Below are positions 20,141 through 21,170 of a stretch of DNA of 32,000 nt, one piece after another. The DNA is taken from contig CAYHAA010000003.1 of the NCBI GenBank assembly GCA_964354495.1, positions 160,507 to 192,506 on the forward strand. The letters run 5' to 3'. The first letter of the stretch is position 1; every line of letters begins with the position of its first letter. The notes beneath the pieces were generated by a model, which was not told the DNA's origin, did no database searches, and worked only from the letters and a program-made list of their open reading frames with translations. A program made the translations under genes and the position numbers. The stretch is from an uncultured archaeon. Lineage in GTDB: Archaea > Asgardarchaeota > Thorarchaeia > Thorarchaeales > Thorarchaeaceae.

Positions 20141-20285
20141 TGGCGCTGAGGACGAGACTTGAACTCGTGAGTCTTTCGACAATGGATGTTTGCGTACTTG
20201 CTAAATAGCAACTAATAGCAATCCATCTCCTTACTTCTCAATGCCCGTTTTAAAAACGGGCATTTCCAAGCTAGGAAACCTCAGC
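20141..20285 (-). tRNA. tRNA-Ser(GCT) with two introns (D-loop about 19/20 at 20234-20265; 37/38 at 20188-20215), CCA encoded
   Basis: Acceptor GCTGAGG/CCTCAGC-G-CCA; long variable arm TGTC-GAAA-GACT; anticodon stem ATGGA/TCCAT; BHB central helix TTGC/GCAA. Spliced form reads CCTAGCTTGGTAAGGAGATGGATTGCTAATCCAT. Confidence 0.92.
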
Positions 20286-20406
20286 ATGAGTGATTTGCTC
20301 GGAGATGATGATTCTCTCATAAACATTTTGACAGCCTGTAAAGATGGTTCTCCAAATTCATCTAAACAACTAGATGATGATGGAAGAATACAAAATGAGA
20401 AGACGA

Positions 20407-20424
20407 GAGGCAACCTTCTGCCTC
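20407..20424 (-). terminator. Hairpin plus pyrimidine-rich tract after the microprotein pair
   Basis: GAGGCA-GAAGGT-TGCCTC, followed on the minus strand by TCGTCTTCTCATTTTG. Confidence 0.55.
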
Positions 20425-20512
20425 AGCGCCTGTAGATGTAAGCATGAATCAGAGCGTCAGTCGAGATGATCGTGCCAGAGGACTTTCTCTGGGGTGTCTT
20501 AGCGAGTGCCAT
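20423..20512 (-). CDS. Microprotein B, 29 aa: MALAKTPQRKSSGTIISTDALIHAYIYRR
   Basis: SD GGAGGT 8 nt before ATG; paralogous to microprotein A. Confidence 0.7.
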   Translation of the reverse strand: MALAKTPQRKSSGTIISTDALIHAYIYRR

Positions 20513-20518
20513 GATGCT

Positions 20519-20623
20519 TTACCTCCGGTACTGGTAGGCGTAGGTGATTGCCTCGGTCGAGTAGATTCGACCAGTCATGTTCTTGAGCGCAGATGTGTTC
20601 CGGTTGTTAGTTGTTAGAGCCAT
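20519..20623 (-). CDS. Microprotein A, 34 aa: MALTTNNRNTSALKNMTGRIYSTEAITYAYQYRR
   Basis: TATA box about 33 nt upstream; paralogous to microprotein B. Confidence 0.7.
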   Translation of the reverse strand: MALTTNNRNTSALKNMTGRIYSTEAITYAYQYRR

Positions 20624-20655
20624 AATAGTTCACAGGAAATACTGTGTAGAGTCAG

Positions 20656-20663
20656 TATATATA
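20656..20663 (-). promoter_or_regulatory. TATA box of the microprotein pair
   Basis: TATATATA at a spacing that gives a near-leaderless transcript. Confidence 0.55.
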
Positions 20664-20750
20664 GCGAAGCCACCTGCGAGGGACACAAGATGAAGTCACA
20701 AGATGTGACTAGTCAGAGGGGGTCGTGAGGTCAATCAGAATCATTCTTGG

Positions 20751-21170
20751 TCATTGAATGTGCAAGCGTGTCCTGCAATGTGGACAGAGATAGACATCTT
20801 TTTCGACTGGAACTGCATTTCCGATGTCGAAGTCCATTCCACAACTGCTGCAGTGTAACATACCACTTAGAGAGCCACTCTCCACAGGAAGTGCATGTTT
20901 CCTCATTGATGCTAGTATTCTATCGTCCTCTGAGATGTTGGTTGGGGCAATTGAACGACCCTGAGCCCATCTGAATGTGGCATAGAGCAAAAATACGACA
21001 ATTGGAACATACATGAAGGTGTAGAGGAAGATCAGGTCAAGTGGTGTACTGACAATGACACCATAGATTCCGAGGACACCAAGTACGAGAACAACTGCGA
21101 AGATGAGCCATCTTCCTGTGTGCTGAGATGTATCTCGCGGATAGGGGTCATATGAGTCGTCATTCATCAT
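20751..21170 (-). CDS. Hypothetical membrane protein with C-terminal zinc ribbon
   Basis: Two TM helices, then CSSC...CPHC. Confidence 0.75.
   Translation of the reverse strand: MMNDDSYDPYPRDTSQHTGRWLIFAVVLVLGVLGIYGVIVSTPLDLIFLYTFMYVPIVVFLLYATFRWAQGRSIAPTNISEDDRILASMRKHALPVESGSLSGMLHCSSCGMDFDIGNAVPVEKDVYLCPHCRTRLHIQ

Follow-up and report, generated by a model that had tools for sequence, protein, structure and literature searches.

Basic micropeptides of Thorarchaeaceae: an undescribed multi-copy family among the predicted outputs of an archaeal activator regulon

The DNA analysed here (the window, a stretch of 32,000 nucleotides from a Thorarchaeaceae genome, assembly GCA_964354495.1) carries on its minus strand two consecutive open reading frames for basic micropeptides (Table 1). 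The original prediction, made from the letters alone, had described a self-contained operon of two genes with a TATA box, a GGAGGT site at 8 nt spacing, a hairpin and a pyrimidine tract. All of these parts were recovered at their minus-strand positions, and the operon does have its own promoter and a terminator-like hairpin after ORF2. The operator at 20682-20709 falls just outside the interval considered at that time (20407-20663). The non-consensus element at the BRE position suggests a promoter that depends on an activator. In ORF1, the core follows the pattern S-T-x-A-(I/L/V)-x-x-A-Y, and its last Arg codons together with the stop codon form the GGAGGT of ORF2, from which translational coupling of the two ORFs is predicted. 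The hairpin folds with -15.7 kcal/mol (z -2.2; equally stable in 2 of 200 shuffles), and its stems vary in sequence, yet are kept in relatives. The coding region of the operon folds no better than shuffles (z -0.15), and Rfam returned no match for the peptide operon region.

Table 1 Features of the micropeptide operon and its tRNA neighbour, in window positions
Feature	Positions	Strand	Basis
Operator boxes 1 and 2, palindrome GTCACA-N3-TGTGAC	20695..20709	-	Exact-copy counts in genome and genus
Operator box 3, direct repeat, 13 bp past box 2	20682..20687	-	Kept across 80 operator instances
Conserved element at BRE position, poor match to archaeal BRE consensus	20664..20673	-	Sequence comparison
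TATA box	20656..20663	-	Distance to ATG fixed across loci
Shine-Dalgarno site of ORF1 (GTGA)	20629..20634	-	Kept before first ORFs; 3' end of the genome's own 16S
ORF1, class A micropeptide 1, 34 aa	20519..20623	-	Basic disordered N-part, then C-terminal helix (predicted)
Shine-Dalgarno site of ORF2 (GGAGGT), 8 nt ahead of its ATG	20521..20526	-	Sequence
ORF2, class A micropeptide 2, 29 aa	20423..20512	-	ORF and family profile
Terminator-like hairpin; outer stem takes in last two Arg codons of ORF2	20401..20431	-	Folding compared with shuffles
Pyrimidine-rich tract 3' of hairpin	20382..20400	-	Sequence
tRNA-Ser(GCT) with two introns, neighbour outside the operon	20141..20285	-	Called as tRNA-Ser(GCT) after in silico splicing

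The operon had also been placed upstream of a tRNA-Ser gene. The tRNA is real; ARAGORN and Rfam miss it because it contains two introns, one of ~32 nt in the D-loop, which is common to relatives, and one of 28 nt in the anticodon loop (20188-20215), which is missing in two relatives. The arrangement itself is not conserved. A 193-bp block with the tRNA and its promoter (20141-20333) is inverted with respect to three relatives (L002, L003, L004), including one that is 93% identical, so that the position of the tRNA, on the same strand behind the peptides, is incidental. The inversion is either a true event or an assembly artefact. On the other side of the operon, positions 20751-21170 (minus strand) encode a 139-aa protein that has a pair of transmembrane segments and, at its C-terminus, a zinc ribbon; at 8 or more loci, its gene is kept in the space separating EF-1-alpha from the peptide operon.

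Comparative analysis indicates that both ORFs are real genes under purifying selection, and their expression is predicted. Each matched the family profile with E < 1e-11 among the 76,578 ORFs of the genome. The two peptides share 10 identical residues within their last 17 codons, 7 of them specified by different codons. Across 88 distinct copies, the 10-codon core had a pN/pS of 0.38 and a dN/dS of 0.17-0.19, figures that are descriptive because the pooled pairs are kin. The same core DNA read in the two shifted frames gave dN/dS values of 1.1 and 1.5, and 43-48% of the copies contained stops when read this way. For the whole ORF, dN/dS was 0.27 (11 disjoint pairs). Entropy reached 1.55 bits at third codon positions versus 0.43 bits at second positions. 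The suggestion that the diverged nucleotide sequences reflect selection on the peptide was therefore borne out.

A shared MAL start and an 18-residue C-terminal block had been proposed as well. The common core proved real, with a narrower extent: codons 2-8 show low synonymous divergence, the terminal RR codons serve also as the Shine-Dalgarno site of the next gene or as a terminator stem, and with the MAL start and terminal RR partly under nucleotide constraint, the core kept at the peptide level comes to ~10-12 residues. The linker evolves near neutrality (dN/dS 0.83) and keeps its basic character. In 232 unique peptides, the core columns were S (80%), T (92%), a variable residue, A (98%), I/L/V (99%), a small residue, Y/H/R/F, A (77%) and Y (86%); the best-kept residues, Thr, Ala, Ile, Ala and Tyr, are small or hydrophobic. 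AlphaFold predicted a helix at residues 23-33 (pLDDT ~80), and when column frequencies were mapped onto it, A25, I26, A29, Y30, Y32 and R33 shared one face. In this model, a conserved helix with a single preserved face suggests a specific docking site. The peptides are rich in K+R (21%), contain 18% L+I+V+F+W and ~1% Gly, and carry a net charge of ~+5. The hydrophobic moment of the core is 0.31, and by composition there is no hydrophobic stretch long enough for a transmembrane helix.

The two microproteins had been described as a paralogous pair. They are paralogs, though not a lone pair: the operon is one copy of a large multi-copy family with 8 copies at 5 loci in this genome. Using a broad profile, we obtained 636 matches in 84 of 86 Thorarchaeaceae genomes (83 of 85 besides this one). 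All 16 genera were represented, whereas the 314 other Asgard genomes gave no match. Homologs that keep the frame and an excess of synonymous change, whose absence would have spoken against the genes, were thus both found. Genomes with the family hold 1-15 peptide genes, so that up to 15 conserved genes per genome escape annotation across a whole Asgard family. The genes form arrays of 1-4 basic class A peptides, often ending with a class B type, of which the operon in the window has none. Class B peptides end in E-V-L-x-(L/W)-E-A-T, encoded inside a conserved hairpin, and although their length varies, 40 of 41 cases preserve the frame. At ~40 loci (for example L035:4897-5001), the C-terminal codons of class B double as a terminator-like hairpin, with some compensatory changes. 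The class B C-terminus is under a dual constraint, on protein and on RNA.

The junctions within the arrays follow a pattern of their own. When a class A gene ends in TAG, the start of the next gene is in frame at 35 of 39 junctions, versus 21 of 82 for other stops; at ordinary TAG junctions of this genome, the next start is in frame in 7 of 28 cases. Among 31 junctions between a last basic peptide with a TAG stop and the class B ORF behind it, 29 are in frame (L030:1702-1899 plus 28 further loci), and gene callers already output TAG read-through fusions (P0021, P0026, P0035, P0043, P0050, P0054). For natural in-frame fusions of basic and acidic parts, AlphaFold predicted two separate helices with a low pTM of 0.32. 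The in-frame junctions could reflect leaky read-through or a fixed Shine-Dalgarno spacing inherited from one ancestor. Read-through with pyrrolysine was rejected: in five genomes no PylS scored over the cut-off, and 719 of 1697 stops in this genome are TAG, more than of any other stop codon. The junction between ORF1 and ORF2 in the window uses TAA and lies outside the TAG pattern.

That the peptides belong to no recognised family held throughout our searches. There was no match in Pfam, NCBIfam, PHROG or the PDB, ribosomal protein chains included, none at >=0.9 in the ESM Atlas, and no paper on this peptide family in the literature search. A search of 1.84 billion representatives gave 47 matches, all of 29-73 aa. 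The longer of these reflect upstream extension or predicted read-through of TAG, and a fusion to a large domain was not seen among the 47. Within the large proteins of this genome, no class A core helix scored above the reversed control, and the top match for class B was a generic PAS-domain helix. These results point to an undescribed multi-copy family of ~30-residue basic peptides, which we interpret as small-protein outputs of an archaeal activator regulon.

Several known systems were compared with the family and dropped. The HbYX motif forms the C-terminus of the proteasome activator PAN, and a minority of the family likewise ends in a hydrophobic residue followed by Tyr-Arg. A hydrophobic-Tyr-X end occurs in only 18 of 232 peptides and in neither peptide of the window; the latter end in Tyr-Arg-Arg, and selection acts on the helix upstream of the C-terminus. 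A toxin of a type I toxin-antitoxin system was rejected for the lack of a transmembrane helix. Likenesses to the histone H3 tail, the histone alpha-3 helix, thymosin/WH2, the PIP box, the eIF4E-binding motif, the aIF2-beta N-helix, the ExxxY of PqqA and the class III signal peptide were set aside for want of a test or of fit.

The operator connects the peptide arrays with other genes. Its exact form occurs in 4 copies in the genome against 0.19 expected, 3 before peptide arrays and 1 before a gene for a 413-aa bactofilin. We found it in 28 of 28 genomes of the genus (reversed control, 0) and upstream of bactofilin at 28 of 30 loci; viral contigs gave no match. In many genomes it also heads genes for a 365-aa multi-pass membrane protein, an MFS transporter and a nitroreductase. 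The bactofilins of the regulon are soluble beta-helix proteins of ~390-410 aa (Pfam PF04519), and the Thor bactofilin is net acidic (72 D/E versus 56 K/R). On the upstream side, the bactofilin gene (G000 C4:55921-57159) adjoins an HTH_45 gene (G000 C4:55467-55802), which below the cut-off also scores as Sso10a family; it is 88% conserved in 14 aligned copies and is found in 69 of 76 family genomes. Since sister families with close HTH_45 orthologs carry the same operator, HTH_45 is the likely reader of the operator. One operator-preceded gene (L096:2167-3252, plus strand) encodes a 362-aa membrane protein with an acidic and then poly-Arg N-terminus and repeated transmembrane hairpins, for which no family match was found.

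Peptide arrays and MFS genes also stand behind two other promoter modules. The operator GGTTTG-N5-CAAACC abuts the TATA box and is often repeated downstream (L033:4057, L160, L143); its placement appears repressor-like. The other is an element of fixed length that lies 24 nt ahead of the start codon and combines three TGGTCA boxes, spaced by 11-12 bp, with a GTGACCA box. It occurs in 45 of 86 family genomes (for example L012:1752-1858, L133:1582-1688, G000 C1:548295 and C9:82036) and probably represents a third type of promoter whose TATA box is weak. MFS genes of three subfamilies lie downstream on the same strand at ~40 of 131 loci, which are redundant and thus not independent. One subfamily, related to exporters of the EntS/MefA type, is translationally coupled within ~8 nt. 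In L034:4720-5017, a G+C-rich leader of ~280 nt with inverted repeats precedes an MFS gene and has no Rfam match.

The same operator is present in other classes. In Hermodarchaeia it stands before bactofilin, before the same MFS subfamily and before one basic peptide of 28-30 aa with a Shine-Dalgarno site and its own terminator (9 of 19 genomes; pN/pS 0.56). A family of Heimdallarchaeia has the operator in 12 of 12 genomes, where it precedes several bactofilins, an MFS, an ABC transporter and, at several loci, tandem pairs of basic peptides of 27-33 aa (pN/pS 0.50). These Heimdall peptides are lysine-rich, with helices predicted by composition. Five Heimdall genomes place a peptide 30-40 nt ahead of bactofilin, with a single promoter for both; L316 and L343 are loci at which a peptide and bactofilin would be transcribed together. 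Neither the Hermod nor the Heimdall peptides are annotated. In Bathyarchaeia, the operator heads bactofilin alone, and in a sister family of the same order it stands before bactofilin with no peptide seen there. We scanned 185,579 genomes for the operator with the Hermod/Heimdall BRE element and obtained 38 matches: 33 of Asgard type, 2 in Bathyarchaeia before bactofilin, and 3 in bacteria without such genes, which are probably due to chance. Two of the 33 Asgard-type matches are labelled Bathyarchaeia yet hold Heimdall-type peptides; the sequences (L340, L341; DATKZI01) match an Asgard-family genome, and the label is probably wrong. Another operator-headed type of basic peptide, 32 aa long, lies upstream of deoxyhypusine synthase in Heimdallarchaeia (L308:1592-1687, L322:262-357, L362:2035-2130).

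The peptides of the three Asgard classes agree in size, charge (+4.5 to +5.9), promoter and architecture. Their profiles gave no significant alignment, so that homology is not demonstrable from sequence and the three groups may be independent recruits with different jobs. A five-residue pattern common to all three was chosen after seeing them; its enrichment over shuffles is circular and was not counted. Besides bactofilin, the members of the regulon differ by lineage, as with the deoxyhypusine synthase region and others in Heimdallarchaeia. The constant core consists of candidate regulator, operator and bactofilin, which transporters and micropeptides join in three Asgard classes. The core of this regulon of a candidate regulator, operator, bactofilin, transporters and micropeptides reaches back to Bathyarchaeia, and operator-headed counterparts of the peptides occur in Hermodarchaeia and Heimdallarchaeia, the latter a class often placed near eukaryotes.

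A described system with similar promoter geometry is the regulon of TFB-RF1 (PF1088), a TFB-recruiting activator of Pyrococcus furiosus, which binds a palindrome with a 5-nt centre (TCTG-N5-CAGA) immediately ahead of a TATA box with a weak BRE and targets a membrane protein and a drug-exporter-type transporter (PMC5937170). Both systems share a palindrome of the 13-bp type at a constant spacing in front of the weak BRE and the TATA box, as well as membrane protein and transporter targets. The Thor motif, however, reads TCAC-N5-GTGA and has a third box, and neither bactofilin nor micropeptides are reported for the Pyrococcus regulon (PMC5937170).

Our preferred reading, to which we assign a probability of roughly 0.4, is that the peptides are unmodified, inducible effectors needed at high dose in an envelope/cytoskeleton regulon, where they dock onto a partner via the short C-terminal helix. 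The genes, the selection on them, their common operator and the genes linked to it are the observed part of this explanation. An HTH_45 (Sso10a-like) winged-helix protein would bind the operator beside the weak BRE and act as activator, jointly switching on the long bactofilin, MFS transporters, the multi-pass membrane protein and the 1-15 peptide genes per genome. The operon would yield, as outputs of this old inducible regulon, two basic micropeptides that stay unmodified and in the cytoplasm. The number of copies, their tandem arrangement and the coupling of translation suggest that large amounts are needed and, with that, a stoichiometric role. One face of the putative helix would then dock onto a conserved envelope partner, most likely from the same regulon, either the bactofilin filament or an MFS pump, and the lysine/arginine-rich tail may contact an acidic protein or lipid.

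The regulon's constant gene resembles bactofilins and halofilins in its bactofilin domain (PF04519), and archaeal bactofilins shape membrane curvature in Haloferax (PMC11459167). In the literature searched, no micropeptide partner of any bactofilin was reported. Several points weigh against our preferred reading: co-regulation does not equal physical contact, the peptide profiles of the three classes do not align significantly, the regulon's members besides bactofilin vary by lineage, two other promoter types occur at some arrays, and many arrays precede MFS rather than bactofilin genes, which fits export equally well. In a wider version, which we regard as doubtful, the Thor, Hermod and Heimdall peptides would form a single family, ancient and quick to diverge, that supplies accessory subunits to a long-bactofilin cytoskeleton. 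They would have joined the wHTH-bactofilin regulon in an Asgard ancestor. Their task would be to control how filaments are bundled, capped or attached to the membrane when cells change shape or respond to envelope stress, and leaky UAG read-through would give basic-acidic fusions in Thorarchaeia. If the peptides act on bactofilin, they would represent small-protein regulators of a cytoskeletal system in Asgard archaea that is distinct from actin, tubulin and ESCRT-III. As all parts are small and can be made in vitro, binding of the regulator and the partners of the peptides could be tested without a culture.

The association with MFS genes raises the alternative that the peptides leave the cell through the co-regulated pumps and act outside as cationic antimicrobials or signals. 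They would then be comparable to the staphylococcal psm-alpha operon or the leaderless multi-peptide bacteriocins aureocin A70 and garvicin KS. Common to all are tandem paralogs of 20-35 aa that have no signal sequence and are each served by a separate ribosome-binding site; the candidate regulator and the MFS genes linked to some loci may match the dedicated regulator and co-regulated exporter of those systems. The downstream MFS subfamilies at the ~40 redundant loci, the translationally coupled EntS/MefA relative among them, the presence of MFS genes behind all three promoter types and the positive charge agree with this. However, PSMs, aureocin A70 and garvicin KS are hydrophobic, membrane-lytic, encoded at a single locus, patchily distributed and exported by ABC transporters. 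The Thor peptides are hydrophilic in composition, lack the strongly amphipathic character of PSMs and are encoded at several loci with MFS and bactofilin genes as partners. Their retention in 84 of 86 genomes with a fixed core is unlike that of patchy, diversifying weapons or pheromones, and the operon in the window contains no transporter gene. To our knowledge, export of 30-residue peptides by MFS transporters has not been established. We consider export unlikely, though together with binding to nucleic acid or the ribosome it is a leading rival of our preferred reading.

An unlikely reading, too, is that the peptides bind nucleic acid or the ribosome in stress or dormancy, as a hibernation factor or a small chromatin protein, via the basic tail and the Tyr/Arg helix. 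Small acid-soluble spore proteins and ribosome-associated stationary-phase peptides are analogues of this kind, and the strong positive charge, the Tyr and Arg in the core, the many copies, the inducibility and the lysine-rich Heimdall peptides with their predicted helices would fit. On the other hand, no solved chain matched, ribosomal proteins included, the best-kept residues are small or hydrophobic rather than basic, and the conserved co-regulated genes belong to envelope and transport, not translation.

The peptides could instead feed back on their own regulon by binding the HTH activator or the basal transcription machinery, being the operator's most amplified targets and headed by it in three classes with a common regulator. 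We regard this as quite improbable: from Thor to Hermod the regulator stays highly conserved while the peptides have no detectable common sequence, and neither Bathyarchaeia nor the sister family within the order showed a peptide at the operator that precedes bactofilin. The complex prediction of a peptide with the HTH dimer scored 0.00 and has no bearing on binding either way.

Besides a signalling peptide and a nucleic-acid or ribosome ligand, both of which persist as rivals here, the original prediction had considered a leader/core peptide precursor, while noting that no modifying enzyme is adjacent and that a RiPP role was unsupported. The latter remark agrees with the neighbours in the window and with a tally of 131 loci, at which no enzyme recurs as a neighbour in the same operon. 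PqqA, triceptide and related peptides are RRE-dependent radical SAM RiPP precursors, and the Thor peptides resemble them in being short with a conserved aromatic C-terminal block behind a variable N-part. Modification in trans, for example cross-linking of Tyr by a stand-alone RRE-radical SAM-SPASM enzyme, was conceivable, because each of the five genomes first tested has one PqqD/RRE radical SAM protein without a visible precursor beside it. Such an orphan enzyme lies in this genome at G000 C1:462708-464129 (L256:5709-7130, minus strand) and is 70-88% identical across Thorarchaeaceae. At the genome level, the precursor idea gained no support: the enzyme turned up in no more than 62 of 85 genomes of the family, and two genera rich in peptides had it in just 1 of 7 and 2 of 7 genomes. 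Five peptide-bearing genomes (86-98% complete) lack any PqqD domain yet preserve an intact peptide core, and no YcaO was found in five genomes. The enzyme also has no operator and has ~50%-identical relatives outside the family. In contrast to known RRE-dependent precursors, the Thor peptides have no linked maturase, and we consider modification very improbable.

Finally, the reading of the ORFs as cis-acting leader peptides for a downstream gene, or as incidental products of a recurrent regulatory element in DNA or RNA, is scarcely credible: some arrays run directly into MFS genes, where decayed peptide ORFs persist, and the ORF ends are nucleotide-constrained, but terminator-closed stand-alone arrays, the window's included, keep the same protein-level core, the tRNA downstream is opposite in orientation in relatives, the terminator-like hairpin after ORF2 leaves no co-transcribed regulated gene, the coding region shows neither excess folding nor an Rfam match, and dN/dS on terminator-closed arrays largely refutes it.

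Two further arrangements were seen at peptide loci. At G000 C9:77000-83400 (L032), smc-scpA-like genes on one side and a gene for a 167-aa protein on the other flank a peptide array with an MFS cassette, which runs on the opposite strand. The 167-aa protein has no Pfam match and may be a partner in the ScpB position; this arrangement recurs at ~15 loci. Just upstream of the C16 peptide array, there are two tandem profilin-like genes (L033:2132-3045).
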